Positions 12,712 through 57,780 of a stretch of 64,000 nucleotides of DNA are shown piece by piece; within the stretch, counting starts at the first letter, position 1, and each line of letters starts with the position of its first letter. The translations under genes were made by a program, and so were the position numbers. The notes beneath the pieces are model-generated. The model was given only the letters and a program-made list of their open reading frames with translations, ran no database searches and was not told the origin of the DNA. Source of the DNA: a virus. Its lineage: Duplodnaviria; Caudoviricetes. Location: positions 64,001 to 128,000 of the IMG/VR virus record IMGVR_UViG_2721755486_000001. One strand, 5' to 3'.

Positions 12712-14058
12712 ATGGCGACGGGCAAGGCAGCAGGGAAGGCGAACGCAACGACCAAAACGAAACGATCGGACGAGCGCGCGGACGACTGGAAGACCGTCCG
12801 GGGCAAGGCCTGGTCGCGCACGATGCGCTCGACGGTGGAGCGGGTGCTCAACCGGTCGGAGGACCTGCCGCCCCGGCTACGGGAGCCGCGTTTTCGCGCG
12901 CACCTGCTGCTGTCGTTGAAGCACCTCACGGGGGACGGGCGCGACGTGGACGACGCCCCGGACAAGGTGTGGATGATCTCGGGCCGGCAGATGGACAAGC
13001 TCAACGAGGCGCAGCGCGAGCAGCAGGGCGGTACCACGGGCAACGCCTGGACCCGGTGGGAGAACGGGGCGAACGTGCCGTCCGAGGACAAGATCCGCGG
13101 CACCTTCGGGCTGTTCCCCGGACACGAAACGGTGCTGGGCACCGACCACGACGGCAAGCCCTTTAAGGCGATCGACGTGGGCTTCGCGGAACTGTACTGG
13201 TCGGTCGGCCCGTGCGCGGACGACACTGTGACACCCGTACCGCTTTGGGCGATGATGGGCGGCGACACCTCGATCGCGGCCCTCTGGGTCCCCGTTCTGC
13301 GCTACCACGACGGCAGCGGCTTGGAGGGTCACGCGGTCGCGGACCACTTGGACACTGGCGTGGCGTTCGTCCGTTCGGACGTGCCGGCGGCGGGATCCGG
13401 GGCGAAGCATTCGATGTTCCCCAAGCCTGGCTTCACCCGATCGCCCGACGCAGCACCGTCGGCGTTCGACGGCCCGGCGCGCGCAGCGAACCTGCGTCTG
13501 AACCGGCGCCCGTTGCTCAACCCCGACCTCTCGCCGGCGGATCAGGTCACCCTCCTGAAGGCGAATACCAGCCACCAGGCGCAGCAGCTCGCCGAGCTGG
13601 GTGCGGATAGCTTTCTGCACCTCATGGGCGTCAGCAGCACCGAACGTGCGGGTGAGGGCAGCGCGCTCAGCGTGGGCGACGTAATCGTGCTGGCCTTGGC
13701 CACGATCTTCGCGAAGGGTGAGCGGGGCGACCTGCGCAGCCGGCTGGAAGACCCGGTCTTCACGGCGCTGCGCGAGCGGCACCGCGCGATCGTCCGGTGG
13801 GCCGCTCCGTTTGGGATCGAGGCCGGCGTGCGTCGCTGGTTGCGCACGCTGCACGGCGATTACCTGGACCGCAACGGCTACGCGTTCCTGCCGGTGGAGA
13901 CACCGGCACGGCCAGACGAGGAGCTGGAGTACGACCGGGACGACCCGGAAGCGGAGTACCTGGCGCACGAGGACAACGTGCCCACCGTCACCGCCGAGCG
14001 CGCCCGTCAGGGGCGTTTGAGCGGCGATCAACGGCTTTCCCGTCGGCGCAAGGCCTGA
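12712..14058 (+). CDS. Hypothetical protein with XRE-like HTH segment
   Basis: 448-aa ORF; GTTGNAWTRWENGANVPS resembles an XRE recognition helix. Confidence 0.55.
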   Translation: MATGKAAGKANATTKTKRSDERADDWKTVRGKAWSRTMRSTVERVLNRSEDLPPRLREPRFRAHLLLSLKHLTGDGRDVDDAPDKVWMISGRQMDKLNEAQREQQGGTTGNAWTRWENGANVPSEDKIRGTFGLFPGHETVLGTDHDGKPFKAIDVGFAELYWSVGPCADDTVTPVPLWAMMGGDTSIAALWVPVLRYHDGSGLEGHAVADHLDTGVAFVRSDVPAAGSGAKHSMFPKPGFTRSPDAAPSAFDGPARAANLRLNRRPLLNPDLSPADQVTLLKANTSHQAQQLAELGADSFLHLMGVSSTERAGEGSALSVGDVIVLALATIFAKGERGDLRSRLEDPVFTALRERHRAIVRWAAPFGIEAGVRRWLRTLHGDYLDRNGYAFLPVETPARPDEELEYDRDDPEAEYLAHEDNVPTVTAERARQGRLSGDQRLSRRRKA

Positions 14059-14258
14059 CGTTCATCGGCTCCGCACCCTGGGGCCGGCCACCGATCGGTA
14101 CCCCGGCTTCCTGCCCGGGTTCCCCGGGGTTTGTTGCCACGGGACCGCTGACCCCATTCCCACCACGTGAGTTGCGCGGCGTCCAAACCGCGACGCTGGC
14201 GTAACTCAGCCTGGGCGCCCCCCCCACCCACACTGGTCTCCGTCGAAACAACTTCACG

Positions 14259-14564
14259 GTGACCGGCATGACCCAGCAGACCCATACCTTCGCATTCCCG
14301 GGCAAACGCGCCCACCCGATGGTGGACGTCAAACCGCTGATCGAGCAGTCCTGCACCCACGTCCCGGCGTGGGTAGCGCAGGTGCTCGTGCCGCACGACA
14401 CGTTCGAGGAATGCGGCCAGCAGATTGACCGCAACCTCCCGATCGCCAGCCCGACCTACGCCGAAGCCCTCTGGTGGTCGCTTTTGCTCCGCATCCTCCG
14501 GGACGGCTCGGGCCGCATCGTGGTGCGGATGCCGCTCGACGACATCGGCCCGATCGACGGCTAA
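14259..14564 (+). CDS. Hypothetical protein
   Basis: Lies downstream of a GACTCA box and -10 element; plausible composition. Confidence 0.5.
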   Translation: MTGMTQQTHTFAFPGKRAHPMVDVKPLIEQSCTHVPAWVAQVLVPHDTFEECGQQIDRNLPIASPTYAEALWWSLLLRILRDGSGRIVVRMPLDDIGPIDG

Positions 14565-14711
14565 GGAGGATGGTCGACGCCTAACCCCTCTCCGCATCGC
14601 CCAGCGCTTGAGTCGTCCACGGTGCTGGGCGACCCCGCCTCACGACTCACCCAGAGTGGCCCCCCTCGCGATACTGAACCCATCGACACCACACACCCAC
14701 GGAGCAACCCC

Positions 14712-15788
14712 ATGACCACCACGAACATCGCAGCAATCCGTCGCCCGATCACGTCCATCGACCAGTTGATGAAGGAGGCCGATGCCCTGATCCAGCGCTA
14801 CTTCAAGAACGAAATCTCGCTTGAAAAGGCACGCTGCGTGCTGGACAAAACGTTGATGTCGGCGGCGCTGGAAACGATCGGGGGTCCCGACGCCGCCACC
14901 GCTGTTCTGGAGGCGGCCGTGGCGCTAGACCACCCGGCGTTCGTGAGGGAACTGCTCGATGCCGGTGCGAATCCCGACGGTCTCAAGTTCGACGGGTACG
15001 GCCCGGAAAGCAATGGCTGCCCCCTCGCTACTGCGATCTTCGACATCTATGAAATCAGCAGCGCGTTCATCATCAACATGCTGCTGATCGAAGGGGCAAC
15101 GCCGGACCGTCGCCGCACCGGGGACACCCTTCTGCACGCGCTCGCACGCGGCGGAGATCTGCTGGGCGCCGACCCGGACCGCGCGCAATGCTTCCATTGG
15201 ATGGTCGCTGCCGGTTGGGTGGTGAACGCTCGCAACGACGACGGCGCCACCCCTCTGATCGAAGCGGCCAATCTGGGGAACCACTACGCGGTCGCGGCAC
15301 TGATCGCGTTGGGCGCCGACGTCCACGCCGTCGACGTCTATGGGTACAGCGCCCTCGATATGGCACTGAAGAGCATCGATCAGAACGGGGTCGCGGCCTG
15401 CGTTGAAGCGCTGGTCGGCGCTGGGGCGAAACCGTGCAAGCCGTGCGGCGACGATTACTACGAAGAACGGGAACGCCTGCGCGGGGAGTATGACCAGATC
15501 ACCCAGCGTATCAAGACCAACGGCGATCTCACCGAGCTGGTCCAGATCCTCGACAAGGGGCAACACCTCGAATCCCGGGTGGACAACGAGGGCGCCACGC
15601 CCCTGATCGTCGCGGCCAAGCATGGCAACCACAAGGTTTTGACCTTCCTGATGGGGTGTGGGGCAAACATCAACGCGGTGGATCACGACGGCCTGAACGC
15701 TCTGGACCATGCGGTGGGTGCGGCACGCCAGTGCCGCACGGAGCTGCTGCTCAGCGTGGCGATGGCCACGCAGCCGGTAGGTGCGTAG
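14712..15788 (+). CDS. Ankyrin-repeat protein
   Basis: Several G-x-TPL repeats (GDTLLHALA, GATPLIEAA, GATPLIVAA); GGAG RBS. Confidence 0.88.
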   Translation: MTTTNIAAIRRPITSIDQLMKEADALIQRYFKNEISLEKARCVLDKTLMSAALETIGGPDAATAVLEAAVALDHPAFVRELLDAGANPDGLKFDGYGPESNGCPLATAIFDIYEISSAFIINMLLIEGATPDRRRTGDTLLHALARGGDLLGADPDRAQCFHWMVAAGWVVNARNDDGATPLIEAANLGNHYAVAALIALGADVHAVDVYGYSALDMALKSIDQNGVAACVEALVGAGAKPCKPCGDDYYEERERLRGEYDQITQRIKTNGDLTELVQILDKGQHLESRVDNEGATPLIVAAKHGNHKVLTFLMGCGANINAVDHDGLNALDHAVGAARQCRTELLLSVAMATQPVGA

Positions 15789-15919
15789 CGCCGTTTGCAG
15801 GCCGGCCGGCACGCGTGAGTCGCGACACCCCGGGGGTGAGCTCGGGCTCGCGACTCACCCAGGGCGGCCCCCCTCGCGATACTGAACTCATCGACACTAC
15901 CCACCCACGGAGCAACCAC

Positions 15920-16324
15920 ATGACCACCGGCATCGCCAACGCCTCCCTGTGCGCCGCGGCGTTTCTCGGCGACCTCGATGCCATCCGCGCGCACCTCGAC
16001 GACGGGGCGGACATCAACGGCACGACGACGAACCACGCCGGCGAAGCGCTCACCCCGCTGATGTGGGCCAGCGCCGGCGGCCGTATCGAGGCGATGTACA
16101 TCCTGCTCGCGCAAGGCGCATCGCCCACCTACACCGACCCGCAGACCGGCGTGACGGCGTTGCACTGCGCAGCGATGGCCAACCAGCCGGAAGCGGTGGC
16201 GGTGCTGATGGTCCATGGCGCGGACCGTCATGCGACGGCGGACCACAACCAGGGCACCGAGCTTGTGAAGCCCATCGACCTGACCCGACCCGGAACGGCG
16301 GCGCACGCGCTGCTGAGCCGCTGA
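15920..16324 (+). CDS. Ankyrin-repeat protein
   Basis: TPLMWASAGG and GVTALHCAA; about 85 bp upstream is duplicated from the gene at 14712. Confidence 0.85.
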   Translation: MTTGIANASLCAAAFLGDLDAIRAHLDDGADINGTTTNHAGEALTPLMWASAGGRIEAMYILLAQGASPTYTDPQTGVTALHCAAMANQPEAVAVLMVHGADRHATADHNQGTELVKPIDLTRPGTAAHALLSR

Positions 16325-16373
16325 ACCCTGAATCGTCCCAACCACCCGTTTTCCACCACCAAGGAGCTTGACC

Positions 16374-16934
16374 ATGGCCACCCAGATCCAATGCACGTCC
16401 GCAGAACTGCCGAACCTCATGCCGTTGCTCGCTACGCTGACCGATTTCACGTTGAACGTGATCCCGGCGGCGATCACCACCGCCGCGCAGGCCGCTCAGG
16501 CGGTCGTACAACCGGCGGTTCCCACTCCGGTGGCGCAGGTGGTGGCACCCACTCCTGTGGCCCCGGTGGCTTCCGTGGCTCCGGTGGAGGACTCGGCGAC
16601 CATGAGCACCGCGGAGGTGATGGAGCTGTTCGACTACGCCACGCCGCAAGCGGTGGCGGACCTGATGCAGCGCGCCGAGATCCCTGCGGTTCAGCGCGGG
16701 CGCAACAACTATTACGAGCGTGCCAAGGTGCTGGCCCTGAAGAAGCTGTACAGCGAGACGTTCAGCCTGTCCGAAGCCTCGGAGCTGGTGGGCTACAAGA
16801 ACCCGTCGGGCCTGCTGCTGCACATCGGGCAGCGCCGCATCACGCCGACGATGGTGGCGGGCCACATGCGCTTCCGCGTGAAGGACCTCGAGCAGTTCGA
16901 GAAGCTGCGCGGACCGGTCCGCCGCCGCTGGTAA
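16374..16934 (+). CDS. Tandem HTH_17 (MerR/excisionase-like) DNA-binding protein
   Basis: MSTAEVMELF and FSLSEASELVG...MRFRVKDLEQF repeats; AAGGAG RBS. Confidence 0.7.
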   Translation: MATQIQCTSAELPNLMPLLATLTDFTLNVIPAAITTAAQAAQAVVQPAVPTPVAQVVAPTPVAPVASVAPVEDSATMSTAEVMELFDYATPQAVADLMQRAEIPAVQRGRNNYYERAKVLALKKLYSETFSLSEASELVGYKNPSGLLLHIGQRRITPTMVAGHMRFRVKDLEQFEKLRGPVRRRW

Positions 16935-17113
16935 GCCCGGCATCACCACTCGCATCACCGCAGTTCCAGCACCACCCGCACCACCCGCAACACCCAGCGC
17001 CACGGCGCTCCTCCTCGCGACACGTCCGGGCCCCACCGGAGAGATCGCCCCGGTTCGTCGGGGGCTTCCACCGTTCCACGCATCCCCCCAACGCCAACCA
17101 CCGGGAGACCCCC

Positions 17114-17659
17114 ATGGCCATGCAGAACCGCGTCCTCGGCACGCCGTACGCGCGCCGTCCGATCGACCCGATCGCCGTCCAGGCGTCGGCCGCTCGCTCC
17201 GTTTCGATCCCGATGCCGCCGCACGGGGTCCCGTACGACTACTACGCGGCGGCGTACCTGCTCGCGGTGCAGACCGCCAACCAGCGCGGGGCGGTGCTCG
17301 CCCTCGACCTGGTGCGCAAGGCCCACACCGTCGACCTGCTGGGCATGGCGCTGCTGGGCGACCTGGCCGCCGGCGAGATGGTGGAGGTGCGCGAAACCCT
17401 GTCCTCGCCGTTGGCGGTGGAGCACCTGCACCGCGTGCGCTACCACCAGGACGACCAGGGCGGGGCGTTCGTCGCGTTCAAGGACCTCACGCCGCTGCAC
17501 GTGGTGGCCCTGCACGGCATGGCGAAGTTCGTCCGCCCGTTGCTCAAAGTCGGGGTGAATCCCCGTGCGCGGACCGCGTGCGGCAAGACCGCTCGCGACC
17601 TGGCGGAGCGCCGCGGCCACCACGCGGTGGTGAAAGCCCTGACCGCCCGGGGCGCATGA
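17114..17659 (+). CDS. Protein with C-terminal ankyrin repeats
   Basis: TPLHVVALHG...GKTARDLA. Confidence 0.7.
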   Translation: MAMQNRVLGTPYARRPIDPIAVQASAARSVSIPMPPHGVPYDYYAAAYLLAVQTANQRGAVLALDLVRKAHTVDLLGMALLGDLAAGEMVEVRETLSSPLAVEHLHRVRYHQDDQGGAFVAFKDLTPLHVVALHGMAKFVRPLLKVGVNPRARTACGKTARDLAERRGHHAVVKALTARGA

Positions 17660-17773
17660 GCACCGTTCCCGTTGAGTCGCGCCGTGCGTTTTCGACGAGC
17701 GGTCGGCGACTCAGCGGGGGAGGCCCGAGCCTGGACACTGGACCGGTCTCAACCAACCCACGAGGACACCACC

Positions 17774-18121
17774 ATGGGATTCATTCCGGAACTGATTGAC
17801 ACGCAATCCCCTGACCACTTGGACGGCGCCGGCTGGCTCACCTGTCCGGAACGTATGGACGACGCGGGCCGTCGCAACCTCCCGACCGTCAGCCGCTTGA
17901 TCTGCGAACTGGGCGAGGAGCTGGACCAGGAAATGCCGCCGCGGGCGTGGATGGCAGGACGCTTCCAGACGGTATTGAAGCACCTCGCCGCTGGGTCGCA
18001 GGACCACTACGTCATGGGCCCGCTGGTGCTGCGCGCGAGCGCGACCACGTGGGCATACGTGGCCGCGTTTTACCGCAACGGCGAGTGGGTGGCCCAGCTC
18101 CACGTCGGCGGCACCTTGTAA
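17774..18121 (+). CDS. Hypothetical protein
   Basis: GAGG RBS; downstream of a GACTCA box. Confidence 0.55.
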   Translation: MGFIPELIDTQSPDHLDGAGWLTCPERMDDAGRRNLPTVSRLICELGEELDQEMPPRAWMAGRFQTVLKHLAAGSQDHYVMGPLVLRASATTWAYVAAFYRNGEWVAQLHVGGTL

Positions 18122-18166
18122 CCCGACCCCCTGACCACCGCATCCCAAACCCACCAGGAGAACCGT

Positions 18167-19012
18167 ATGGCCCGCAAAACCACCACGAGCACGACCACCA
18201 CGACGAAGGCGTTCACCGACCGTGTGGAACGCTTCGCGCAGAACAACCCGATCCGCTCGGGCGTGAAGGCGATCCTTGACGACATCATCCAGTTGCAGTT
18301 CAACGTGTTGTCGGTCACGGCCCCGATGATGTACGCCCTGACCGCGGGCGCGGCGTGGTTCAACAAGGATCACCTGATCGCGCTGGACGAGTACCGCGGC
18401 CACCCGCAGGCATGGGCGGAGCAGTTGGCCCTTGGCGCGATGTACTTGGAGCTGGTGAAGACCTCGGCACCGTTCACCGACGTGCTGGGGGACGTCTACG
18501 GGTCCGCAATCGCACCGAAGCAGGCCAAGGCGATGGGGCAACACCTGACGCCGGCCGGTCTGGCGGACGGGCTCGCGCGCTTCGCGGCCCAGATGGGCCA
18601 GGGCGCGACGACCGGGGAGGCAAACCGGCCGTTCAACGCCAGCGAAGGCCAGATCGTATGCGACCCGGCGTGCGGCACCGGCGCGTTGCTGCTGGCAAAC
18701 CTCCGTCAGGCGTTCGCGGCCCACGGGAAGGAAGGGGTGGCGCGCATGTACGTGTTCGCGAACGACATCGACCCCGCCATGGTGAAGGCCACGGTGGTGC
18801 AGATCGTGCAGTCCAGCATCCTGCACAACGTGCCGTTTGGCGGGCTGCGGGTGCATTGCTCCGACCTGATCCGCCACTACCACGACGCGACGGCCGACAC
18901 GGTGGCGGTTCAGATTTGCCCGAACCGTGTCCGCAGCGCGGAGCACGCCTGTGACGAGACGGCCCGCAAGGAGGCGAAGGCAGGTCAGGCGACCACGAGC
19001 ACGGTGGCTTAA
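18167..19012 (+). CDS. HsdM-like (N-6 DNA methylase family) protein lacking motif IV
   Basis: DVLGDVY...GQHLTP, DPACGTGALL, NDID; no NPPF/Y. Confidence 0.75.
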   Translation: MARKTTTSTTTTTKAFTDRVERFAQNNPIRSGVKAILDDIIQLQFNVLSVTAPMMYALTAGAAWFNKDHLIALDEYRGHPQAWAEQLALGAMYLELVKTSAPFTDVLGDVYGSAIAPKQAKAMGQHLTPAGLADGLARFAAQMGQGATTGEANRPFNASEGQIVCDPACGTGALLLANLRQAFAAHGKEGVARMYVFANDIDPAMVKATVVQIVQSSILHNVPFGGLRVHCSDLIRHYHDATADTVAVQICPNRVRSAEHACDETARKEAKAGQATTSTVA

Positions 19013-19079
19013 CCGATCCGAACCCCGGGGCGCGATGGGCGCCCTGTTCAACGCACAAACAGCAAACTTGGAGAACTGC

Positions 19080-19658
19080 ATGAACGACAAGCCGTACGCC
19101 AACGGGGCGATGATCAAAATGCTCGTCAACGTGTTTGAGGTGAGCCGGAACGAGTACGAGAGCGAACACGAGCAAACGTTGCTCCACTACGCGGCCTGGG
19201 CAGGAAATGCCGAAGCCGCGCATGCGCTGATCGAGCTGGGGGCGGAGGTCGATGCCAAAACGCTCGACGGGCACACGCCGCTTCTTTTTGCCGTGCAGCA
19301 GCGCTCGGTCGACACCGTACGGGTGTTGATCGAGGCGGGTGCTGACGTGAACGCAGAGGACGAGTCGAACCGTTCCATTCTCGATCACCTCTTTTTGGAC
19401 AACATGGTTGAGACCACCCGTCGGAACGATCTGCGCGTGATCCGGCTGCTGCTTGACGGTGGGGCCGATCCGACGTTGGGCCTGACCTTTGCCCTCGGCG
19501 AAGACCATGGCTTGGGCGTGCGCGCGACGGTGCGCGCCGGCGCCGACGTACAGGCCGCATGCGCCGACGCGGGCGACCAAGCTGGGGCATGCGCACTCCG
19601 GCAGATCGACATCCTCCGTGCGCGGCGTGAAAAAAAACCGACGGACAACCGGGGCTGA
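19080..19658 (+). CDS. Ankyrin-repeat protein
   Basis: TLLHYAAWAG and GHTPLLFAV...GADVNAED. Confidence 0.85.
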   Translation: MNDKPYANGAMIKMLVNVFEVSRNEYESEHEQTLLHYAAWAGNAEAAHALIELGAEVDAKTLDGHTPLLFAVQQRSVDTVRVLIEAGADVNAEDESNRSILDHLFLDNMVETTRRNDLRVIRLLLDGGADPTLGLTFALGEDHGLGVRATVRAGADVQAACADAGDQAGACALRQIDILRARREKKPTDNRG

Positions 19659-19897
19659 TGGGGATCGAAACCCGGTGCTGACGCCGATGGGGCCGAAGGC
19701 CGGGGTTCGCGCCCAGGAGCCTCCGGCTCCGGTGGGGTTGCGACGTGCGAACGCAGGGCAGAAGGTGGGTGCCAGGGCACGGGTCGACCGTTCGTCCGAA
19801 GGGCGGCCCCACGGCTTGACGGGCCACCTGGACCCGCTAGGTTAAACGTATAGGGTACGCGCCAACGCAAAGCCCATTCACCCCCGGAGACCACATC

Positions 19898-20149
19898 ATG
19901 TCCACCCATGCCCCACACAATCCGCTCTCCCGCCTCGAAGGGCTCACGCCCGAGGAGGTGGCCGAAGCGTTGACGCACATCCGCTCCATCCGCCCGGAGC
20001 CGGGCTACTTCGACACCATGGCCGAGAGGGCTTATGCCGTCCTTTTCACCCGTCTGGGTGCTGAGCGTTGTGCTTCCACCGAGGCTGAGGTTGACCCCGT
20101 GCTGCAAGAGCTGGACGCCGGCGACCAGGATTCTGGCCTCACCGTCTAG
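19898..20149 (+). CDS. Hypothetical protein
   Basis: Has its own promoter, leader hairpin and GGAG RBS. Confidence 0.6.
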   Translation: MSTHAPHNPLSRLEGLTPEEVAEALTHIRSIRPEPGYFDTMAERAYAVLFTRLGAERCASTEAEVDPVLQELDAGDQDSGLTV

Positions 20150-20250
20150 CTGTGCCACGGCACATCCAACGCAGCGCCCCGGCCCGTACTTGACGGGCCG
20201 AAAGTACCCACTAGCCTGGACCGCGTCCGACCCGATCCAGGAGGTGCGCC

Positions 20251-21027: not shown

Positions 21028-21150
21028 TTGGCCTACGCCCGTGCCCTGGCACGGGCCTATTTTTGGCCGGGTGGTTGACAGGGGACCAGGACCCGCTAGG
21101 TACAAAGGAGAGGCCCCGGCCTGGGGCCATCAATAGGAGGGGGATCTACC

Positions 21151-21513: not shown

Positions 21514-21574
21514 TCAATCACCAGGTTCATGAAAGCAGGCCCCAGCCTGGGGTCACCACACGGAGGAGACGGCC

Positions 21575-22826: not shown

Positions 22827-22893
22827 CCCGGGCCGCCTCACCAGCACGTGCGACCGTCACCCCGTGGGTGACGGTTCACTTCAGGCGGTGGTT

Positions 22894-33488: not shown

Positions 33489-33492
33489 CCCG

Positions 33493-47333: not shown

Positions 47334-47437
47334 GGACCGATCGACCAACGTTCAACCAGGGCCCGCGGCAACGCGGGTTTTGGCATAACGGGCCCCATGT
47401 CTTACCCTTCACGCTTGACGCAGGAGAACCGCTCACC

Positions 47438-48775: not shown

Positions 48776-48844
48776 ACCCACCGTCCAACCACTTGGCCCG
48801 TCGGGAGGCGGGCACCCCTCACACCCACCCCACGAGATTCGATC

Positions 48845-49279: not shown

Positions 49280-49363
49280 GCGGCAGAGGCACCCAACGTT
49301 GACCCAGGGGCCGCGGGAACGCGGCTTTCCGGGTACCATCCACCGACCCCATCGGAGCAGCAC

Positions 49364-50080: not shown

Positions 50081-50108
50081 CGAGCAGGAGCACCGCCGTT
50101 CTCCCAGG

Positions 50109-50134
50109 AGCCCACCTTCACCGGTGGGCTTTTC
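50109..50134 (+). terminator. Intrinsic terminator
   Basis: AGCCCACC-TTCACC-GGTGGGCT-TTT. Confidence 0.65.
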
Positions 50135-50455
50135 CGTTCTGGCGAGGCGATCGGCATCGCCGGGCCCCATGACCCCAACCCAAGCCGGGGCTCACGCCCG
50201 GCACTCGAACACCAGGACCCTCGCACCCGAACGACGCCCGGGGGCAAGGAGCGGGGCTCCACCGCACGCGTTCAGACCGTGCCCTGGCACGCTCTGACGT
50301 CCGGCTATAGCGGTGGTGGGGCCATAAAAAAATACAAAGGGCGCACCCCGTGAATCGTCGGTCCAAGCCGTTGCCAAGGGCATCGGATTTTGTAGACTGA
50401 ATGTGTAGGGCGGCGCGATCGCCGCAGACCCACCACCCCTCCGAGGACCCCCGCC

Positions 50456-50671
50456 ATGAGCACCACCACCTGGAACATGTTTCGCTTCTACCCCAGCAAC
50501 GAGGACCGCTACACGGAGGCACCGACCAAAACGGAAGCGATAGCGCGTGGCCTGGGCCTGGCGGTCGACGAGCTGGATGCTGCGATGCTGACCTCCGACA
50601 ACTTCGCCGAGGGCTACGTCATCCGGGCAGTGCTCGACACCCGACCGGAGTACAGCGCGGCGCTGGCCTGA
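50456..50671 (+). CDS. Small hypothetical protein
   Basis: Promoter at 50371, leader hairpin, GAGG RBS. Confidence 0.6.
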   Translation: MSTTTWNMFRFYPSNEDRYTEAPTKTEAIARGLGLAVDELDAAMLTSDNFAEGYVIRAVLDTRPEYSAALA

Positions 50672-50763
50672 TCACCACCAGCACCACCGTTCGTCCAGGG
50701 CCCATCGCGAAACGATGGGTTCGTCCGTACCGGAGCATCCCGCTCCGTTCTACGGACACCACC

Positions 50764-51012
50764 ATGAGCAAGCAACAACACTACTCGAACGACAAAGACC
50801 TGCACCGCCACGTCGCGGGCCTGGTCAAGCAAGGTTGGACCTTCCAAAAAGGGCGGGTCCACGGGAAACTGATCGCACCCAACGGGCGGCGCATGTCCGT
50901 GGCGGTGAGCCCATCGGACCGTCGGGGATTCGAAAACCACGTGCACCAGGTCGAACGACTTCAAGCTCTACCGGCCGCGCCAACACGGACACGCAAGGGC
51001 AAAGGAAGATGA
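50764..51012 (+). CDS. HicA-like small protein with no adjacent HicB
   Basis: LVKQGWTFQKGRVHGKLIAPNGRRMSVAVSPSD pattern. Confidence 0.55.
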   Translation: MSKQQHYSNDKDLHRHVAGLVKQGWTFQKGRVHGKLIAPNGRRMSVAVSPSDRRGFENHVHQVERLQALPAAPTRTRKGKGR

Positions 51013-51062
51013 GGCAGGGCGGGTAGGTGAGGCGGTGCCCTGGCACGGGCACCGCCTGACGG

Positions 51063-51821
51063 TCAGTCGAAAATGCTGTCCCAGAGCGCGCTCACCGCGG
51101 TGACGGCGAGTCCGACACCGGCGGCCACCGCGACGACGGGCAGGCTCACCGGGGCGGACACGATCCCCACGGCAGCGGCGCCGGCGCCACCAACGACACC
51201 GGTCAGGCCCGCAGCGGTCAGCCCGTTGGCGATCGCGGTCGTGGCGGCCGGGGCCGACAAGGTAAGGGCCGCGCTTACGGTGGGGGCCAGCGATGCGGCA
51301 GCACGTGCGGCGGTGGCCGCGTTCACCGCGCTCGTCACCGTCGACGCCGTGCGCCCGGCGCTCATCATTTGTGCGGCCACACGGACCGTGGAACCCATCA
51401 CCTCCTGCGTTCCCCAGGTCTGGTACCAGCGGTACATGAAAGCGGTCGCGGCGGTGGTTCCCATCGAGCGGACCATCTTGTTGACCTGCTCGCTCGTGTG
51501 CTCATCCTCGATGCACCACGTAACGAAGTGCTCGCAGTTGTTGAAGACGAGGTTGTACTCCTCCTCGCCGATGCGTTGGCGGGCGCGCCGAACGCTTTCC
51601 AGGCGACCGTGCAACCGATCCGGGTGATCGACGAACCGGACTTTGCGGTCTTTGGCAAAGGCCGACATGGGCACCTCCTCGATCACCCCGGTGTCCCACA
51701 GCGCGTCCTTCCCCGAATATTGGATGACCGTGTTGGGCCCGGAGGCAAGCCCGTGGTGCTCGTAGCCGAAGCGCTGTACCCACAAGTGGTCCCCGGCGCG
51801 AATCGTTCGATCGTCGCTCAT
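51063..51821 (-). CDS. LRAT (NC domain, permuted NlpC/P60) family protein
   Basis: GDHL...YEHHG, YNLVFNNCEHF; hydrophobic Gly/Ala-rich C-terminus. Confidence 0.88.
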   Translation of the reverse strand: MSDDRTIRAGDHLWVQRFGYEHHGLASGPNTVIQYSGKDALWDTGVIEEVPMSAFAKDRKVRFVDHPDRLHGRLESVRRARQRIGEEEYNLVFNNCEHFVTWCIEDEHTSEQVNKMVRSMGTTAATAFMYRWYQTWGTQEVMGSTVRVAAQMMSAGRTASTVTSAVNAATAARAAASLAPTVSAALTLSAPAATTAIANGLTAAGLTGVVGGAGAAAVGIVSAPVSLPVVAVAAGVGLAVTAVSALWDSIFD

Positions 51822-52392
51822 GCTGGTCTTCTCGCTTGTTCGTGTTCGTGTTGTCGGACGCCTGCTCTACGGCAGATCGTCGCTGAACTTTACAGCAGCT
51901 TGCGCTCGGGCGGTGCGGTGGGCACCACCAAGGGGGCAGGCAGGACCGTGGCAGGGGCGGGCGGCGATGGGCCCGGCGGGCACCAGGGAAAACGGCGGCG
52001 ACCAGCGACCACACCAACACCCTGGGCCCGTGGCCCCAGGTCAAGGCGGTGCTGACGCCAACGGGCGCGGGCCAGCTCCGTTTCGCACCCAGGGCCGGAG
52101 GCGGGGTTCGTGCCCTCCGCCCATGAGGGTGGTGTCCTCGCGGTCGAGCGACCCCACAGCATCCGCAGCAGCCAAACGATCAACACCTCGCGTTCACCGC
52201 TGACCACAACACCCACCAGACGTTGATGACGCGAGCACCGGTCACGCATGGCGCGCCCACCGGTCGTCCGTGTCCCATGGGCCACCCACGTCTCCTCCCA
52301 CCGTACTTGACGAACCAGGATGACCCGCTAGGGTGGCCTGCAGCAGGGCCGCATCGAGCCCTGAACGTCAACGTCAACGAGAGGAGGAGACG

Positions 52393-52647
52393 ATGAGCAA
52401 GCGCACGGCTTTGCAGCTCAAGGAGCCCAACCACGAGGATCCCAAGATCACCCGCCTCACCAACGCCATCGAGCGCAAGCACCGCGTGGTCGGCGTCAAC
52501 CAGGCTGGGGAACGTGTGGCGTACGACTGGGACGGCGTGACCGGTGAATGGCGCCGCGACTGGGAGTACGGTTCGACCACGCCCTTGGGTCGCGCGTTCG
52601 GGGAAGACCGTTCCGTTGGGGCCGGATTCGCGTTCGACGGGTTCTGA
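52393..52647 (+). CDS. Small hypothetical protein
   Basis: Promoter at 52307; GAGGAGGAG RBS. Confidence 0.6.
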   Translation: MSKRTALQLKEPNHEDPKITRLTNAIERKHRVVGVNQAGERVAYDWDGVTGEWRRDWEYGSTTPLGRAFGEDRSVGAGFAFDGF

Positions 52648-52993
52648 CGGAGCGGCACATGGGACTGGTTGACCCGTGCCAACGCACGGACCCGACAGGA
52701 GCAGCGCCCACCACCTCGGTGGGCGTTGTGTTTTGTGGGGCTGACGACGTGCGCCTGAGCGGTGGAGGGCATGACACCTTCCCACGCGGCGGCGGAAGCG
52801 GTTCATCGCCATCCCCCAGCGTATCTACCGCTCGGTACCGAGCGTCGACCGTTCGTCCGAAAGATCGAGTAATGCACGAAGTTTCTGCATTCGTCGCAGT
52901 CGAGCCTATTGCCAACCTCATTGGGTTTTGTAGACTGAAAGCATATGGAAGGCGCAAACACATCGCCGACCCGCCACCCGATGGAGCAAGACC

Positions 52994-53443
52994 ATGAGCA
53001 CCCTGACCCTCACCACCAAGCTGAACGCCCGCATGATGGCCGCCGTCATCCTGGACGACGCTCGCGACATCCGCCGCCTGGCGAAGGAAGGGCTGGACGT
53101 GACCGGCGTCAGCCTGACCGGGGACACTTGGCTCGACATCGCGGTGGCCCGCAACCGCATGAACGCCGCCGCCGCGATCATCATGTTGTCCGGCAGCAAG
53201 ACCAACGTCCTGAACGCGGTCGACAAGACCGGTGACACGGTGCTCGACAAGGCCGTGGGCGTGGTGAGCGAGAAGTTCCTCGTGATGCTCCTGAGCGCGA
53301 GCGACAAGCTCAACCTCCTGCACCGGAACAGCAAGGGGGTCTCGACGCTGGACCTGCTGGTGAAGCTCAACAGCAAGCCTGTGAACGACGCCCTGGCGCG
53401 GAAGCGGAACCGGACCATCGACACCATGGCCCTGGCCGCCTGA
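52994..53443 (+). CDS. Divergent ankyrin-repeat protein
   Basis: GDTWLDIAV, NAVDKTGDTVLDKAV, GVSTLDL. Confidence 0.7.
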   Translation: MSTLTLTTKLNARMMAAVILDDARDIRRLAKEGLDVTGVSLTGDTWLDIAVARNRMNAAAAIIMLSGSKTNVLNAVDKTGDTVLDKAVGVVSEKFLVMLLSASDKLNLLHRNSKGVSTLDLLVKLNSKPVNDALARKRNRTIDTMALAA

Positions 53444-53461
53444 CCAGCGAACCGCACAACC

Positions 53462-53590
53462 CCAGGGCCACGACCCTGGATAACAACAGGAGGAGCAGGG
53501 CCAAACCGGAGGAGTGGCCCTGACAACAAGGAGGAGCACAACAACAACTAGGGGAGGAGGGTAAAGCGGCGCCAGATGGCGCCGCTTTTC
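53462..53590 (+). ncRNA. Candidate GGA-repeat sRNA or 3' UTR (Csr/Rsm-sponge-like)
   Basis: Four GGAGGAG at 53489, 53508, 53530, 53553, one in a hairpin loop; ends at a strong terminator. Confidence 0.4.
53563..53590. terminator. Bidirectional intrinsic terminator
   Basis: AAAGCGGCGCCA-GA-TGGCGCCGCTTTT between convergent genes. Confidence 0.75.
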
Positions 53591-53807
53591 ACATGGGCAG
53601 GCGTAGCGCGGTGCGGGACCCGTGCGCGGGGCTGGTCGTACCGGGTGGCGGGGCAGAACCGGACGAGTGCAAGACAGGGGCCGGGATCTGCAACGCGGCG
53701 GTGGCGATTCACCACCACCCCCGATTCACCACCACCCCCACACCGGGGCCACCGGCCCGGTCCCGAAATCCCGGTGCTGATGCCCGTGCCAGGGCACAAC
53801 CCCAACG

Positions 53808-54485
53808 TCACACGAACACGCACCGCTGCTGCTGCTCGGGTTGCCAGGGGCAGGGCGTGCGCGTCACAGCGTGCACCATCGGGGAGGCGTAGCGCGGATC
53901 GTCCGCGGGGAACTCCACCGGGGCTTTCTTCCACGAGAACGCGGGCAAGACCGGGACGATGAGCCAGTCTGCCTCGGTGGCGAGCATGTCGGCGAAGGCC
54001 TCGACCTCGACCCGGTTGGACCGGAACACCCGGTACTTCCCGACTTGGCGGCGCTCGGCGAACGTCCCATCGAGCAGGCAGGCACGCTGGGCGTACAGCT
54101 CTTCGTGCGACACCAGCCCATGCTTGCGCATCGTGCGGACCTGCAGGCGCTCCCGGGCCAGGGTACGACGGTCGTACTCCGGGTCCTGTGCATGCTCGGC
54201 GATGTCCGCCTCCATCGCTTCAACCACGTCCATCCCGTCGGCTGAACCACGGACGAGCAGGGCAGCCCAATGCTCGCTCGGCACGGTGAAGTAAAAGCCC
54301 ACCCGGTCCGTGTCGAACCAGGACGGGTCCTCCACCCACTCGGGCACGAACACGTCGGCGTGGGGCAGGCGACGTCCCGCCAGATCGTCCAAGGCCCGGA
54401 AGATGTAAAAGTGCGGGTCCAGGGACCGCTCGACCAGGTGGACCGGGCGGCGGCGCTTCAGCTTCTCGTTGGCGGCTACCTTCAT
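53808..54485 (-). CDS. Hypothetical protein
   Basis: ATGA overlap with the upstream gene; GGAGG RBS. Confidence 0.65.
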   Translation of the reverse strand: MKVAANEKLKRRRPVHLVERSLDPHFYIFRALDDLAGRRLPHADVFVPEWVEDPSWFDTDRVGFYFTVPSEHWAALLVRGSADGMDVVEAMEADIAEHAQDPEYDRRTLARERLQVRTMRKHGLVSHEELYAQRACLLDGTFAERRQVGKYRVFRSNRVEVEAFADMLATEADWLIVPVLPAFSWKKAPVEFPADDPRYASPMVHAVTRTPCPWQPEQQQRCVFV

Positions 54486-55882
54486 GCGGCACCTCCCATC
54501 CGGCCCGTGGCCGTGGCCTGGCTGGTCGGATTGAGCAGACGCTCCCGTAACGCGGCCAGGCGGTCCTGCACGTCCATGGGCAACGGGGCGCGCACCGGCT
54601 CGACCGCAACCGGAGCGACCGGCACCACCTCGTGCTCGCGCACCGGCAGGGGCTTACCCTCACGCAGGGCGTCCAGGAACTCCGCGTGGCGGGCAACGAT
54701 GGCGTCCTGGCGGTGGGCCAGCTCAGGGTTCAGCGGACGATAGAGCGGTGCCGATTCACCGGGCGACCGTACCGAACGTTCGGCACGCGGCGCGGCAGGT
54801 TCCGCTTTGCCCGTGCGCACGTCCTCCAGACGTTGGGCCAGACCGGCGAGCGCATCGTTGACCGGCTTCTCGCGCAAGGTCCGGCGACGCTGCTCCTCGA
54901 CCACCCGCTGTCCCGGCTTTGCTTGCACCGACCACCGGGCGACGCGTCGCGCTTCCTGCACCCACCGCTCGCCGGTGAGCAAGATGTGCCACCGCGCGTA
55001 GTGCTCGTGCCACCCACCGGGGGCCAGGCGTTCCCGCTCCTCCAATGCGAGGGACGACGGGCTGAACGAGGGGAAGGCGGTCCGCTCGCGATCGGTCATG
55101 CTCGGGCGCACCAGCACGGCGTTTTCCTCGACCAGGGCCCAGGCCGCCTCGTACCATCGGTCCAGGGGCACCTCGAACAGTGCGAACCGGCCTTGCGACA
55201 CGTCACGCGCCCCAAACTCGAATCGAAGGCGAAGGCGGACAGCACCACCCCGTTCGTTGGGCAGGCTCCGCAGGTCCCAACCGAAGTACCCCACCTCGCC
55301 GAAGGCCTGGGCCAAGACACGGAAGCGGGGGAAGGCCCAACGCTGACGCAGCGCGTGCATCGCGGCGTCGGTCCCCTTCACCGACAGCGGCAGCACATGG
55401 TTGGCCCCGTCCAGCAGAGCCTCACGACGGCGCGCGAGCAGCTTGACCGGATCGGTCGCGCGACCGAAGGCCAGCCAGTCCCGCCCGCCCTTGTCGTTCT
55501 GGCATTCCGCGCAGCAGAGCACGCGGTTTTCCTCCAGCGCCGTCCCGCCCAAGGCCAGGGGCACCAGCAGGTCCGCCATGGCACGGGGCGCACCGTCAAC
55601 CCGGCTCCCGGTGACCGAGAGGGTAAGACCGCAGTAGGCGCAGACCCCAGACTGCTGGTCGGCGAGGTACCGCACCATCCACGGCTCAGTGTGGCGCATC
55701 GACGCCCGCAGACCTTCGACAAGCTGGGAGAACAGCAGGTCCTGCAACGACCCGGGTTCCACCTTAACCGGTGGCACCTCGACCGGCTGATCCTCGTGGT
55801 CCGCAGGGTCGTACAGGTCCTCGTACGGCTCGTCGTGGTCGAACACCGTCAGGCTGGTGGGGCGCTTGAACATGCTCCCCAT
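54482..55882 (-). CDS. Protein with degenerate HNH/Zn-finger domain
   Basis: CAYCG...ADLLVPLALGG...NRVLCCAECQNDKG; catalytic His position is Leu. Confidence 0.7.
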   Translation of the reverse strand: MGSMFKRPTSLTVFDHDEPYEDLYDPADHEDQPVEVPPVKVEPGSLQDLLFSQLVEGLRASMRHTEPWMVRYLADQQSGVCAYCGLTLSVTGSRVDGAPRAMADLLVPLALGGTALEENRVLCCAECQNDKGGRDWLAFGRATDPVKLLARRREALLDGANHVLPLSVKGTDAAMHALRQRWAFPRFRVLAQAFGEVGYFGWDLRSLPNERGGAVRLRLRFEFGARDVSQGRFALFEVPLDRWYEAAWALVEENAVLVRPSMTDRERTAFPSFSPSSLALEERERLAPGGWHEHYARWHILLTGERWVQEARRVARWSVQAKPGQRVVEEQRRRTLREKPVNDALAGLAQRLEDVRTGKAEPAAPRAERSVRSPGESAPLYRPLNPELAHRQDAIVARHAEFLDALREGKPLPVREHEVVPVAPVAVEPVRAPLPMDVQDRLAALRERLLNPTSQATATGRMGGAA

Positions 55883-55884
55883 GG

Positions 55885-56118
55885 TCAGACCTCGCTGCTC
55901 TCAACCGGGGTAGCGCGGCGCAGGCCCGCACCGTGGACGCGCTCGACCGCCTCGACAATGGCGTCCGGCACGGTGATGCCGTTCAGCTTCGCGTACGACA
56001 CCAGCAGCGCGTCCAGGTCCAGGGGGACCAGCAGGCTCCGGCGCTTGTGGGTGGTTTTCGAGCGCTTCGCCCAGTCGGCGTACACGGCCGCGCGGCGTTC
56101 AGGGTTTTTCGACGGCAT
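55885..56118 (-). CDS. Small ribbon-helix-helix-like regulator
   Basis: KRRSLLVPLDLDALLVSYAKLNGITVPDAIVEAV; first gene of a three-gene operon. Confidence 0.55.
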   Translation of the reverse strand: MPSKNPERRAAVYADWAKRSKTTHKRRSLLVPLDLDALLVSYAKLNGITVPDAIVEAVERVHGAGLRRATPVESSEV

Positions 56119-57751
56119 GGGTCTCCTCCACGTTGACTAAGAAGGCTCGACGCCAAGGCGTCGGCATGACCCCAACCTAGCACCGCCTTGGGTTTGCGCA
56201 AGTCCATACGGTCGTGCCAGGGTACACCTCCACGGGGTTCGCCGGACGGCACCTGCAGGATCGCTCCGGCCTCGCCGGCCGGGCTGTCGGTTGTACGTTC
56301 GCGCTCGCCGCGCGGGCTGAAGGCTCTGACCTGGGGAGAAGGCTGAACCCGGATCGGTTCGATCGTGCTGTACAGGTGCAGGGGCAAGACGGCTCGGGCC
56401 AGGCGGAGGTCTACCACCACCAGGGGGAGGGTCGGACGCGCGGCTGGCCCGTGGCGTCGTACCGTGATCGAGGGGTGGAGGGATGGCACAGGCGGGGCAC
56501 TGCTCGACGCGCGGAGCGCGAACGGCTGAACGTCCAAGGAGGGAGGCGGCACCGCGCGCACGCGTGACCGGCACCGCCTCAACGGGACGGCACAGGACCC
56601 ACGCCGTCCCTGGTCCAGCGTTCCCGCACCGCAGCGCGGGCGGAGGTCGTGCGTTCGCTTCGCGGCACCGGCGCGGACGGCGCAACCGCTCCCGGTTCCG
56701 GCACCCCTTCGGGGAGCCGCGACCGGTCGGGTCGTCGCCTGATGTCCGCGCTCACGGTGCGCGCTCCGCGACCACGCACGCTGGACCGCCACCCCCAACG
56801 GCAGAGTCGGACACCACCCACGCTCCCCGGGGTACGGCGACCACGGGTCCAGCGTCGTCACCGAAGGACGGCGGGTACCGTTCACGCGTGCGCGTCCCAG
56901 TCGGGCGATGGGGCGGAACGGGAGCGCGGTGGCGGCGCACCGTCCACGGTCTGGATCACCCGTGCCAATGCACATGTTATACCGGTCATCAGGGCGTGAC
57001 CGGGGGCGCTGCGCGCGCTCGGCGGTTCGACCGACCGCACGTCGGACCCACCCGACCCGATCACGCGTTTCGTTGGTGCGAATGCCAGCGTCATACCGGT
57101 TACATGGGTCATACCCGGGGGCGCTGCGCGGCGCGAGCGTCCGGTGTACGTACACGCGCGGCGACGCACCGAGACCGGAGGCAGGGGAAGGCGGACCACC
57201 TCGCTGACGCGAACAACCCCAGCACCGTTACGTCCGCCTGGACTTGGCGACGCGTCGCCACGACCCGATGGGGCTGGGTCGCGCTGCACGCTGCGCGGCA
57301 ACGGCACGTCCAGGCAACGGCGAACGGCAACCCCGGACCCCACCGTCGTACCGCGTCGGCGTCACGCTGGGCGTTCCGTACCGCACGGCGACGGGCACCC
57401 CCACCGGGCAGCGGAGCAACGCTCCCCGGTACGGCAACGGCGAACCCCAACGGCGGGCGTTCGTCCGGGAGGCAGGGGCGGGTCCGAACGCTGAAGGCGA
57501 CACCGAACGGCGAACATCGAGGGAAGGAGGCTGTCCCTGGTGCGAGAGGAAGGGACGGGCACAGGGACAGCAGCGCGCACAGGTGGAGCAAGGACGTGCG
57601 CGGGGAGCAAGAGCGAGGGGGTACTGCGAAGGAGGAAAAGCGGTGAAGCGTCGTGCTGAAGCACTCGGTTCCTGGGATTTCGACGTCACACCTCCCTCTC
57701 GCGAAAAATCAAAGTCGGTACTCGGAGGGGGTGTTTGCGAAAATCCTGGAA

Positions 57752-57780
57752 CGACACACCCTTCGCACCTTCGGTGTTTA
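57752..57780 (-). other. oriT: Putative oriT nic site, MOB_F (R388/F-like) type; nick between 57756 and 57755
   Basis: Minus strand AAACACCGAAGGTGCGAAGGGTGT^GTCG compared with R388 GCGCACCGAAAGGTGCGTATTGTCT^ and F TTTGCGTGGGGTGT^ as recalled; upstream of accessory and coupling protein genes. Confidence 0.7.

Follow-up and report, generated by a model that had tools for sequence, protein, structure and literature searches.

A putative 45-kb leading region with repeated, element-wide control sequences in a chromosomal integrative and conjugative element of Burkholderiaceae

The DNA considered here is a stretch of 64,000 nucleotides (the window: positions 64,001 to 128,000 of IMG/VR record IMGVR_UViG_2721755486_000001) and, within it, the segment from 12.7 to 57.8 kb. 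On the sequence evidence, this segment sits within a 149.7-kb chromosomal integrative and conjugative element (ICE) encoding a TrwC (MOBF) relaxase. It is read as the leading region of the ICE, i.e. an establishment or anti-defence island that would be de-repressed on entry into a recipient; this reading, in which the function is deduced from gene content and arrangement, is given a probability of about 0.6. Its leading-region part is supported by two predicted features: the segment adjoins the origin of transfer (oriT) on the first-entering side, and the transferred strand (T-strand) would be the template of most of its genes. The island is a large new example of a known leading-region arrangement, not a new kind of system.

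Positions are those of the window; negative positions and positions above 64,000 lie outside it, and chromosomal coordinates carry the prefix C1. The window corresponds to C1:1937597-2001596 on a 4.38-Mb chromosome; the same genome includes a second chromosome of 3.39 Mb and a plasmid of 177 kb (GC 61-70%). Since the window maps inside the chromosome, its host element is integrated, and the plasmid framing adopted in a sequence-only reading of this DNA is replaced by that of a chromosomal ICE. An origin or homologues among plasmid records were tried and rejected (no DNA match for 50-64 kb); a protein search of such records gave no match for the products of the genes starting at 52994 and 33039. 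A 22-bp direct repeat is present in exactly two copies in the whole genome, at C1:1,873,490, where it adjoins mutS, and at C1:2,023,180. The two copies enclose 149.7 kb (C1:1,873,490-2,023,201; window -64,106 to +85,605). A 562-aa (amino acid) protein starts 107 bp inside the left repeat; it matches Arm-DNA-bind_3 with an E value of 2.9e-5, under the Pfam cut-off, and is not matched by the integrase profile PF00589. The direct repeats and this adjoining protein with an Arm-DNA-binding match lead to the assignment of the enclosed DNA as an ICE. The GC content of the ICE is 66%, its insertion lies beside mutS, and no tRNA gene was found by a search at both ends. Similar GTATGCC-type arm sites follow each copy of the repeat. 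A tandem second element with a classical integrase (C1:2024231) lies directly beyond the ICE, followed by prophage-like genes.

Two related elements were found by a contig scan with the 870-aa ATPase encoded downstream of oriT: one in Paraburkholderia sp. BL21I4N1 (86% identity; relative A, the closer one) and one in P. phenazinium LMG 2247 (70%; relative B). The 100 kb upstream of the ATPase gene are syntenic with the window in both (67-92% and 66-85% DNA identity, with many gaps). A search for the relaxase in 400 genomes sampled from the order found it in one other genome, at 32-34% identity; a search for the ATPase in 77 other genomes of the genus found it in none.

The predicted oriT core (57750..57776, minus strand) consists of the hairpin CACC-GAA-GGTG, with the proximal arm GGTGCG, and 8 nucleotides (nt) up to nic; it was recognised by its match to the R388 nic oligonucleotide. 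The minus strand from 57776 to 57750 reads 5'-CACCGAAGGTGCGAAGGGTGT|GTCGTT, and nic is predicted between 57756 and 57755. The R388 substrate is 5'-GCGCACCGAAAGGTGCGTATTGTCT|ATAG; its proximal arm and the nucleotides up to nic are essential, and a purine is needed after nic (as described in parts of PMC4176350). Compared with this substrate, the hairpin is shared, GGTGCG is identical (6/6), the spacing to nic is also 8 nt (4/8 identical) and a purine follows nic; from the proximal arm to nic, 10 of 14 nucleotides are identical. The F nic region (…GGGGTGT|GG) is presumably closer still than R388 to the last nucleotides before nic. The nic site is kept in both related elements, with an altered loop in one. 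It lies in a 1.9-kb region (56119..58011) without codon periodicity. Comparison with relative A gives 79, 81 and 83 substitutions over the three codon positions and indels mostly of 1 nt; these even counts and short indels indicate that the region is truly non-coding. It includes palindromes at 57829-57840 and 57898-57909, ACGGCGAAC-type repeats at 57296-57511 and a GACCGTTCGTC box at 57921. Its best-conserved part is 57200-57600 (91-95% identity to relative A, above that of the neighbouring genes). Three or four ACGGCGAAC-type repeats are found in this part; they may form a binding array for an accessory protein, an array that is taken to be comparable to the StbA repeats of R388.

The transfer (Dtr) operon spans 58012-67996 on the plus strand, and nic lies in the gap upstream of it. 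The part of the operon in the window (58012..64000) encodes a 161-aa protein, the 870-aa P-loop ATPase, a 149-aa protein and a TrwB-type coupling protein (61927-64497, +; Pfam TrwB_AAD_bind, 2.2e-18). The TrwC relaxase (1122 aa; 64628-67996, +) is encoded beyond the window (TrwC PF08751, 2.8e-65; AAA_30, 3.6e-47). Since the nic motif is on the minus strand, upstream of the operon of the coupling protein and TrwC, the minus strand is the likely transferred strand, with entry from 57755 downwards. The leading direction from 57755 to lower coordinates is likely under the rule derived from R388 and F, according to which transfer genes enter last. The position and orientation of nic proposed in the sequence-only reading are supported by the R388-type match, the conservation in both relatives and the place upstream of the relaxase operon.

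Genes were called with a codon-usage model trained on long open reading frames (ORFs) of high GC3, because ORF lists are noisy at 66% GC; one ORF (19898-20149) was included as well, since its ATG is the end point of a repeated leader. The island proper (12712..53443) includes 57 called genes, 47 of them on the plus strand and 10 on the minus strand. This bias (binomial p 7.5e-7) agrees with the earlier statement that most genes of 12.7-53.4 kb are on the plus strand. A 60-nt gap rule groups the plus-strand genes into 34 units. These genes would be head-on to rolling-circle replication from nic, so that co-orientation with replication would not explain the bias. A three-gene operon directed away from oriT (53808..56118, -) encodes proteins of 225 aa, 466 aa (with an HNH-like motif) and 77 aa that have orthologues in relatives A and B; it would be the first coding DNA to enter on the predicted direction, yet the transferred strand is not its template. 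On the far side, the island is delimited by umuDC (1555..3288, -; IMS 2.7e-37, Peptidase_S24 1.2e-29), found in the opposite orientation beyond the far end, as had been noticed from the sequence alone. Leading-region anti-defence islands are bounded by oriT and umuCD, and 90.3% of umu genes lack the orientation needed for T-strand transcription, according to part of the text of PMC11541004.

The four duplicated blocks reported earlier are all real (0 self-hits in 10 shuffles): 14639/15847 (82 nt, 91% identity), 19835/32976 (72 nt, 86%), 42569/44406 (164 nt, 84%) and 46241/48199 (about 380-390 nt, 75%). They resolve into reused promoter, leader and operator modules. The most frequent of the repeated control sequences is a 12-bp palindrome, GTGCC-NN-GGCAC, with 81 copies in the genome and 49 in the ICE; 42 of these 49 are intergenic, in an ICE of which 23% is intergenic (p 2e-20). 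Seventeen copies lie at 19769..53797 (starts: 19769, 20152, 21041, 22158, 24555, 25882, 30026, 32858, 33696, 35550, 37688, 39738, 46454, 48409, 50279, 51035 and 53786); the other copies in the window start at 2712, 58660, 61015 and 61693. The flanks of the palindrome are non-complementary in about half of the copies, which suggests binding of a protein rather than folding into a hairpin. Many copies directly adjoin a -35 box (GGCAC-N3-TTGAC), on either side of it; in seven class A promoters (defined below), the palindrome centre lies 28.5, 31.5, 31.5, 41.5, 41.5, 42.5 and 42.5 bp before TTGAC. The 14-mer form of the palindrome falls within the elements for 20 of 26, 22 of 23 and 19 of 22 genome matches in the three elements, against 3 matches per genome for a reversed control; the operator delimits about 135-146 kb in each of the three genomes.

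Three other classes of short control sequence recur. Class A promoters have the form TTGACR-N11-12-CCCGCTAGGT, e.g. at 19816..19842 (+); other copies start at 21075, 24602, 33733, 35598, 37736, 39423 and 52307 (+) and at 32177 (-). All nine genome matches to the strict pattern lie in the ICE; three are on the minus strand and two are far outside the island. A looser scan shows class A promoters spread over the left two-thirds of the ICE. The GACCGTTCGTC box has six of its nine genome matches in the ICE, all on the plus strand, including the one before the Dtr operon mentioned above. Class C is an inverted repeat, TGAGTCG-N-CGACTCA, found upstream of genes (12585..12626, +; others at 14609, 15816 and 17673). 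Its five genome matches are all in the ICE, four of them at 12.6-17.7 kb.

The promoter-leader module consists of a 5' stem-loop, a C-rich spacer, GGAG and ATG. A covariance model identifies eight copies in the window, all on the plus strand: 46563..46622, 19844-19900, 32985-33041, 42670-42729, 44507-44566, 48537-48595, 50399-50458 and 52937-52996. In the 429 kb scanned, the model has 28 matches (25 distinct); those outside the window belong to the relatives' leading regions, and none was found with this model in the other 120 kb of the ICE plus flanks. The first 25 nt or so form a two-step stem-loop, with a mean folding z of -2.15 over 20 copies. In the stem, 80.1% of cells are paired, against 22-45% with the partner slid. 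Compensatory changes are found in five of the seven pairs, a number reached by 1 of 500 shuffles, and the covariation score is 0.140 against 0.068. Support for the structure is moderate, since a model-fitted alignment was used and the copies share ancestry. RNAalifold applied to a MAFFT alignment of the leaders gave no pairs; the stem-loop emerged only with per-sequence folding and structure-aware alignment. Stem-loops of the ompA type, at the 5' terminus of an mRNA, are known to stabilise it. The leader stem-loop is probably also an mRNA stabiliser. Short spacers within two-gene units are occupied by GC-rich hairpins with U-runs.

The earlier statement that nearly every unit has its own repeated promoter, leader or terminator is too strong. 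A repeated element (palindrome, class A promoter, class C repeat or promoter-leader module) was found for 22 of the 34 plus-strand units; terminators are at chance, with 14 sites found by a generic scan of 33.6-53.5 kb against 14.0 expected. Two early guesses of motifs were also at chance level. The 12-bp palindrome, the class A promoter and the GACCGTTCGTC box recur at the Dtr operon, the par locus and a far-left gene cluster, and the parA promoter bears two copies of the palindrome. The control circuit therefore looks element-wide rather than a regulon of the leading region. The IncN CUP repeats, proposed earlier as an analogy, are a less close parallel to it than the IncP-1 KorB or p576 Reg regulons. 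Candidate regulators are two weakly ribbon-helix-helix (RHH)-like proteins encoded beside parA (69158-69604 and 71249-71680, with palindromes at 70329, 70416 and 71752) and the tandem HTH_17 proteins of the island. Frpo-like promoters were sought as long inverted repeats over each promoter, a search that did not include comparison with known Frpo sequences, and none was found. Folds of T-strand DNA for five upstream regions were no better than those of shuffles (z -0.68 to +0.83). As no Frpo-like structure was found, early transcription from single-stranded DNA is not supported.

Most genes of the island have orthologues in the relatives, with 28-95% protein identity. The genes private to this element are those starting at 23825, 25945, 41609 and 48593, a GmrSD-like gene and those of 36338-37493. 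The strand bias is found again in the relatives, with 48 of 54 and 71 of 77 island genes on the plus strand; their ankyrin-like genes (9 and 14) are all on this strand. When aligned with the closer relative, 15 of 26 gaps of at least 100 nt begin or end no more than 20 nt from a called start or stop, against a chance expectation of about 1 in 5 obtained by rough arithmetic rather than permutation. Several breakpoints lie 2-5 nt past an ATG or 1-15 nt past a stop. Over 47.3-54 kb (window 47342-53999), contigs from isolates of two organisms and from a soil metagenome show about 93-96% identity, which shows that closer relatives are present in public runs than among species-representative genomes. 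The isolates have 633 other letters in place of 46529-47341, i.e. a promoter module and its gene; this swap begins within the upstream repeat and ends 9 nt past the stop codon. Comparison of related elements, suggested earlier as a check for cassette gain or loss at repeat boundaries, thus reveals gain, loss and replacement. These breakpoints support recombination at reused modules that would swap the genes behind them. The ratio of nonsynonymous to synonymous substitution rates (dN/dS) was calculated against relative A by the Nei-Gojobori method, after removal of genes with less than 70% coverage. Its median is 0.39 for plus-strand island genes (n=38), 0.20 for minus-strand island genes (n=8) and 0.18 for the middle block (n=16). 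The difference between the first group and the 24 other genes pooled is significant (Mann-Whitney, p 6.6e-5), also for proteins of less than 260 aa (p 0.0012).

The island had been described as made of unknown genes. This holds for part of them; the others encode at least 10 ankyrin-repeat proteins, four tandem HTH_17 proteins, two LPD29 proteins, a methyltransferase-like protein and a DUF5710/HNH-like protein. Nine ankyrin-repeat proteins were found by sequence searches (Pfam Ank families, phmmer/jackhmmer). Genes recognised in this way, all on the plus strand, are found at 14712..15788 (358 aa), 15920-16324, 17114-17659, 19035-19658, 21790-22002, 24681-25178, 36675-37493 and 37805-39400. The gene at 52994-53443 (+) is added on the basis of a phmmer link to an ankyrin family, backed by language-model features (score 0.98); 39542-39703 (+) is tentatively included as a possible ankyrin-repeat gene. 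Eight of the 12 Ank_2 matches of the genome fall inside the island, where a Sel1-like ORF is also found. The tandem HTH_17 (excisionase/MerR-like) DNA-binding protein of 248 aa (47438..48184, +; HTH_17 4.9e-27, four stretches) has paralogues at 16368-16934, 45075-45527 and 45829-46227 (+); it has 13 homologue clusters, of which the named ones are all from Burkholderia or Paraburkholderia. The two LPD29 genes (30330..31088 and 42727-43248, +; PF18847, 5.2e-10 and 1.3e-8) have a third paralogue outside the window. LPD29 is one of the domains of the "polyvalent proteins" of conjugative elements and phages.

The methyltransferase-like protein (281 aa; 18167..19012, +) matches N6_Mtase (4.5e-6) over profile positions 3-80 of 311 only. 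In its translation, the AdoMet motif DPACGTG is present and an NPPY/F-type catalytic motif was not recognised by eye; the protein is 92% identical in relative A, so that it is probably not a recent wreck. A three-member paralogue family without known function is encoded by the genes starting at 25180, 33839 and 34409. Several small proteins are very acidic, e.g. the 141-aa product of 44564..44989 (+; isoelectric point 4.1, 18% Asp+Glu, 4% Lys+Arg), which has 11 homologue clusters whose named members are Burkholderiaceae. Three proteins searched against 5.8 billion clusters gave 11, 13 and 12 homologue clusters, each named cluster being from Burkholderia or Paraburkholderia; among the species named are B. 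cenocepacia, B. cepacia, B. vietnamiensis, B. multivorans and B. gladioli. AlphaFold2 models of the products of 44564 and 33039 have a pLDDT of 76.9 and 77.3, and the profiles of these two proteins are unrelated to one another. The anti-CRISPR protein AcrF10 was rejected as a fold match for them (Z 4.1 and 4.3, within noise).

The mechanism proposed for the leading region has five steps. The relaxase would nick the minus strand at 57756/57755, as suggested by the sequence match. On the R388/F paradigm, the nicked strand would enter the recipient 5' end first, so that 57.7 to 12.7 kb would arrive earliest, umuDC being the end of the island. The transferred strand would be the template of about 47 plus-strand genes, transcribed from ordinary double-strand promoters of the sigma-70 type; three kinds of promoter would be reused, many with the element-specific operator at the -35 box and eight with the leader stem-loop as a probable stabiliser. 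In the donor, an ICE-encoded repressor would occupy the operators. In a naive recipient, which would be free of repressor, all units could fire once the complementary strand is made, until fresh repressor accumulates. The products would then aid establishment, most plausibly by binding or blocking defence proteins of the recipient. They would include the ankyrin-repeat, LPD29, DUF5710/HNH-like and tandem HTH proteins, the methyltransferase-like protein and the acidic small proteins. Ankyrin repeats are protein binders. The methyltransferase-like protein, in which the catalytic motif is not recognisable, and the acidic small proteins would suit decoy roles.

Several results weigh against this mechanism. 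Searches of 12.7-57.7 kb with Pfam, NCBIfam and PHROGs returned none of the known anti-defence, ArdA/B/C, KlcA, PsiB, SSB, SOS-inhibitor or anti-CRISPR families, in agreement with the earlier remark that no ardA, ardB, psiB or ssb is recognisable there. Fold searches with the products of 44564 and 33039 gave nothing convincing (Foldseek E of at least 0.089; best VIA, Z 5.5/4.5). In 33.6-53.5 kb, a generic scan for promoters of the E. coli type gave 2 sites, where 1.6 were expected. Since the operators also precede the Dtr operon, the par locus and the far-left cluster, early genes cannot be told apart by the circuit alone, which might just as well act in donor-side activation. The repressor candidates are weak matches, none of which is assigned to the operator. 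Ten genes of the island, including a defence gene, are on the minus strand. A lower constraint on small accessory genes could be enough to produce the dN/dS contrast. The single RNA run with related sequences gives contigs of an approximately 90%-identical relative over 44001-44556 only and is uninformative on the timing of expression. Lastly, no type IV secretion system (T4SS) family was found in the ICE at E 1e-5 (Pfam) or 0.01 (NCBIfam), except weak VirD4-like and MobP1-like matches in a minus-strand cluster at -57.6 to -41 kb; as mating-pore genes were not recognised, self-transfer is only putative.

The alternative that survives best, judged rather unlikely, is an ordinary accessory region, whose cargo or maintenance genes would be co-induced with the transfer genes in the donor and whose strand bias and repeats would come from operon history and duplication. 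It retains some probability because the operators, like the class A promoters, are common to the transfer genes, the par locus and the far-left cluster; the negative tests for single-strand promoters, the lack of matches to known establishment genes and the interspersed defence genes also fit it. Against it, the strand bias is constant across three diverged elements despite gene turnover, in an orientation that would be head-on to replication from nic. The frame from oriT to umuDC fits the published island pattern, the leader module is confined to 19.8-53 kb within the ICE and flanks searched, and dN/dS is above that of the neighbouring blocks.

Less probable still is a host-interaction island, in which the ankyrin and Sel1 proteins would be effectors secreted into eukaryotic hosts (amoebae, fungi, plants or animals) and the neighbourhood of oriT would be incidental. 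The number of ankyrin proteins and the Sel1-like ORF favour it, as do the YadA-type adhesins, the NarE-like ADP-ribosyltransferase and the flagellinolysin-like protease encoded elsewhere in the ICE. In BcenGI15, a 107-kb Burkholderia island with four ankyrin genes, a YadA adhesin and traA/traD, the ankyrin genes are read as pathogenicity-related (part of PMC5382208). Here, by contrast, NCBIfam models of Dot/Icm ankyrin effectors were matched via the repeats only, at 22-51 bits against cut-offs of 450-1400 (e.g. 43 against 600), and an effector-translocating T4SS was not recognised in the ICE with Pfam or NCBIfam. All ankyrin genes have their strand, promoters and operators in common with non-ankyrin neighbours, and every one of them lies between oriT and umuDC in all three elements. 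The LPD29, methyltransferase-like and ArdA-like genes point to conflict with bacteria instead. It is very improbable that the segment is not a leading region at all, the true nic being elsewhere or reversed and the block entering last: nic is predicted from sequence and the loose hairpin-plus-GGTGCG pattern is common (124 matches in this GC-rich genome, 5 of them in the ICE), but the match at 57776 alone among these five also fits the GGTGCG-N4-GNGT core; it is shared with both relatives, is situated upstream of the relaxase operon in the non-coding gap and is on the strand that agrees with the R388/F rule.

Compared with known systems, the leading-region reading finds its frame in the islands described in part of Samuel et al. 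2024 (PMC11541004). These islands also lie beside oriT on the first-entering side with the transferred strand as template, end at an oppositely oriented umuDC and include a methyltransferase-like gene and many uncharacterised small genes. Known anti-defence, SSB and PsiB genes and an Frpo-like single-strand promoter were, in contrast, not found in the island studied here, which spans about 45 kb with 57 genes, at least 10 of them ankyrin-repeat genes, is separated from umuDC by a defence block (3.6-12.5 kb) and is carried by a 150-kb chromosomal ICE of Burkholderiaceae. Its control sequences resemble those of p576 (Reg576/EGeRS2, pLS20 family), in which a repressor binds beside the -35 box of several strong promoters and the genes fire briefly when the DNA enters without repressor (as outlined in part of PMC8708921). 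In both cases, strong-promoter copies have an operator directly upstream of -35, short leader hairpins are thought to stabilise mRNA, genes are replaced behind a conserved control sequence between related elements, and transient expression until the repressor builds up is proposed. They differ in the number of promoters (four in p576, dozens here), in the operator (a heptamer direct repeat bound by an RHH protein in p576, a 12-bp palindrome here), in the reach of the sites, which here extends to transfer and partition genes, and in the carrier (a Gram-positive plasmid and a proteobacterial ICE, respectively). Among systems that have been worked out, p576 is the closest model for the island.

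In IncP-1 plasmids (RK2), KorB/KorA control relies on one short palindrome that is found element-wide, often directly upstream of -35, including at the partition operon promoter. RK2 carries 12 such operator sites. The ICE is alike in having a single short palindrome across the whole element, including the partition promoter; it differs in having 49 sites and an unrelated operator sequence, and a ParB-type protein was not found, the candidates being small RHH or tandem HTH_17 proteins. In IncN plasmids, CUP repeats under ArdK/KorA control are repeated control sequences before leading-region genes that fire on entry. Repeated control sequences before leading-region genes are found here too, a likeness of description and not of sequence; those of the ICE are of several kinds and extend beyond the leading region.

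The transfer functions are of the R388 type (part of PMC4176350): hairpin and GGTGCG arm, 8 nt to nic, a purine after nic, a TrwC-family relaxase with a RecD-like helicase, and oriT upstream of the Dtr operon. The differences are four of the eight nucleotides before nic, a loop of 3 nt against 4 in R388, the 870-aa ATPase and two small genes inserted in the operon, and the size of the non-coding oriT region (1.9 kb against an oriT of 330 bp in R388, as stated in part of PMC4853378). BcenGI15 of B. cenocepacia, as described in part of PMC5382208, is also a Burkholderia genomic island of about 100 kb or more with mostly hypothetical genes, a relaxase and traD without complete recognisable conjugation machinery, a YadA-type adhesin and several ankyrin-repeat genes, and it excises as a circle; its GC content is 45% against 66% here, and its site is a tRNA-Leu gene rather than the neighbourhood of mutS (compared by description, not sequence).

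If the leading-region reading is true, the island provides a catalogue of about 50 candidate counter-defence or establishment genes from Burkholderiaceae ICEs, which are scarcely represented in plasmid-centred surveys, and ankyrin repeats join the protein scaffolds used by mobile elements against bacterial immunity. The 12-bp element-wide operator is a simple handle for the discovery of the regulator; it also marks family members and the limits of elements in genomes. The conserved promoter-leader modules, with swaps at ATG or stop, show how such islands renew their content. A wider proposal is speculative and on balance improbable. A Burkholderia/Paraburkholderia ICE family would carry a fast-turning arsenal of 45-60 kb with at least 50 undescribed counter-defence proteins, of which the ankyrin proteins (10, 9 and 14 per element) would do most of the binding to immune proteins of the recipient. 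Its release would come from de-repression of an element-wide operator network in which the 12-bp palindrome is present about 50 times, i.e. a KorB-like circuit built from unrelated parts.

The remaining features concern the surroundings of the island and its minus-strand genes. The defence block between umuDC and the island (3641..12529; PADLOC, Pfam) includes a complete short prokaryotic Argonaute (pAgo) system (3641-6816, +) made of SIR2-APAZ and a class I short pAgo (PADLOC E 2.7e-206 and 1.8e-203), which is found in relative A and not in B. It also encodes an Abi_C protein, a NucS-like protein and an Eco57I-type methyltransferase (10007-12529, -). The GmrSD-like defence gene of the island (26421..28271, -; GmrSD_N 8.3e-28, PADLOC PDC-M55C 1.7e-39) sits in a 4.4-kb segment that both relatives lack; an LRAT/NlpC-like gene is another of the minus-strand genes of the island. 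An ArdA-like gene lies outside the window (locus L003:1418-2020, E 8.3e-10), about 76 kb from nic; like the third LPD29 gene and a fifth member of the HTH_17 genes, it is on the plus strand, a long way left of umuDC. Rfam at gathering thresholds gave nothing within the window. Sequence searches of the PDB with the 448-, 870-, 1013- and 1527-aa proteins gave nothing usable, and an Atlas search with the 448-aa protein gave only clusters without names. The minus-strand cluster at about -57.6 to -41 kb encodes proteins of 1527, 596 and 1013 aa and small lipoprotein-like proteins, with almost no family matches; the 1013-aa protein is a P-loop ATPase. The cluster, which has the palindromes and class A promoters as its control sequences, may represent a mating-pore module that has diverged very far. 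The NarE-like ADP-ribosyltransferase domain protein (-28,256 to -27,732, +; Pfam 6.9e-15) is encoded next to a divergent pair of class A promoters. A type I restriction-modification pair (HsdR, HsdM) with an IS21 element (-13,139 to -5,326) is private with respect to both relatives. In the right arm of the ICE, 76,794-82,088 (-) encodes a trio of the type VI secretion kind (TsiV immunity protein, VRR-NUC protein and PAAR protein), a SRAP peptidase and a type XI retron-like reverse transcriptase-protease.

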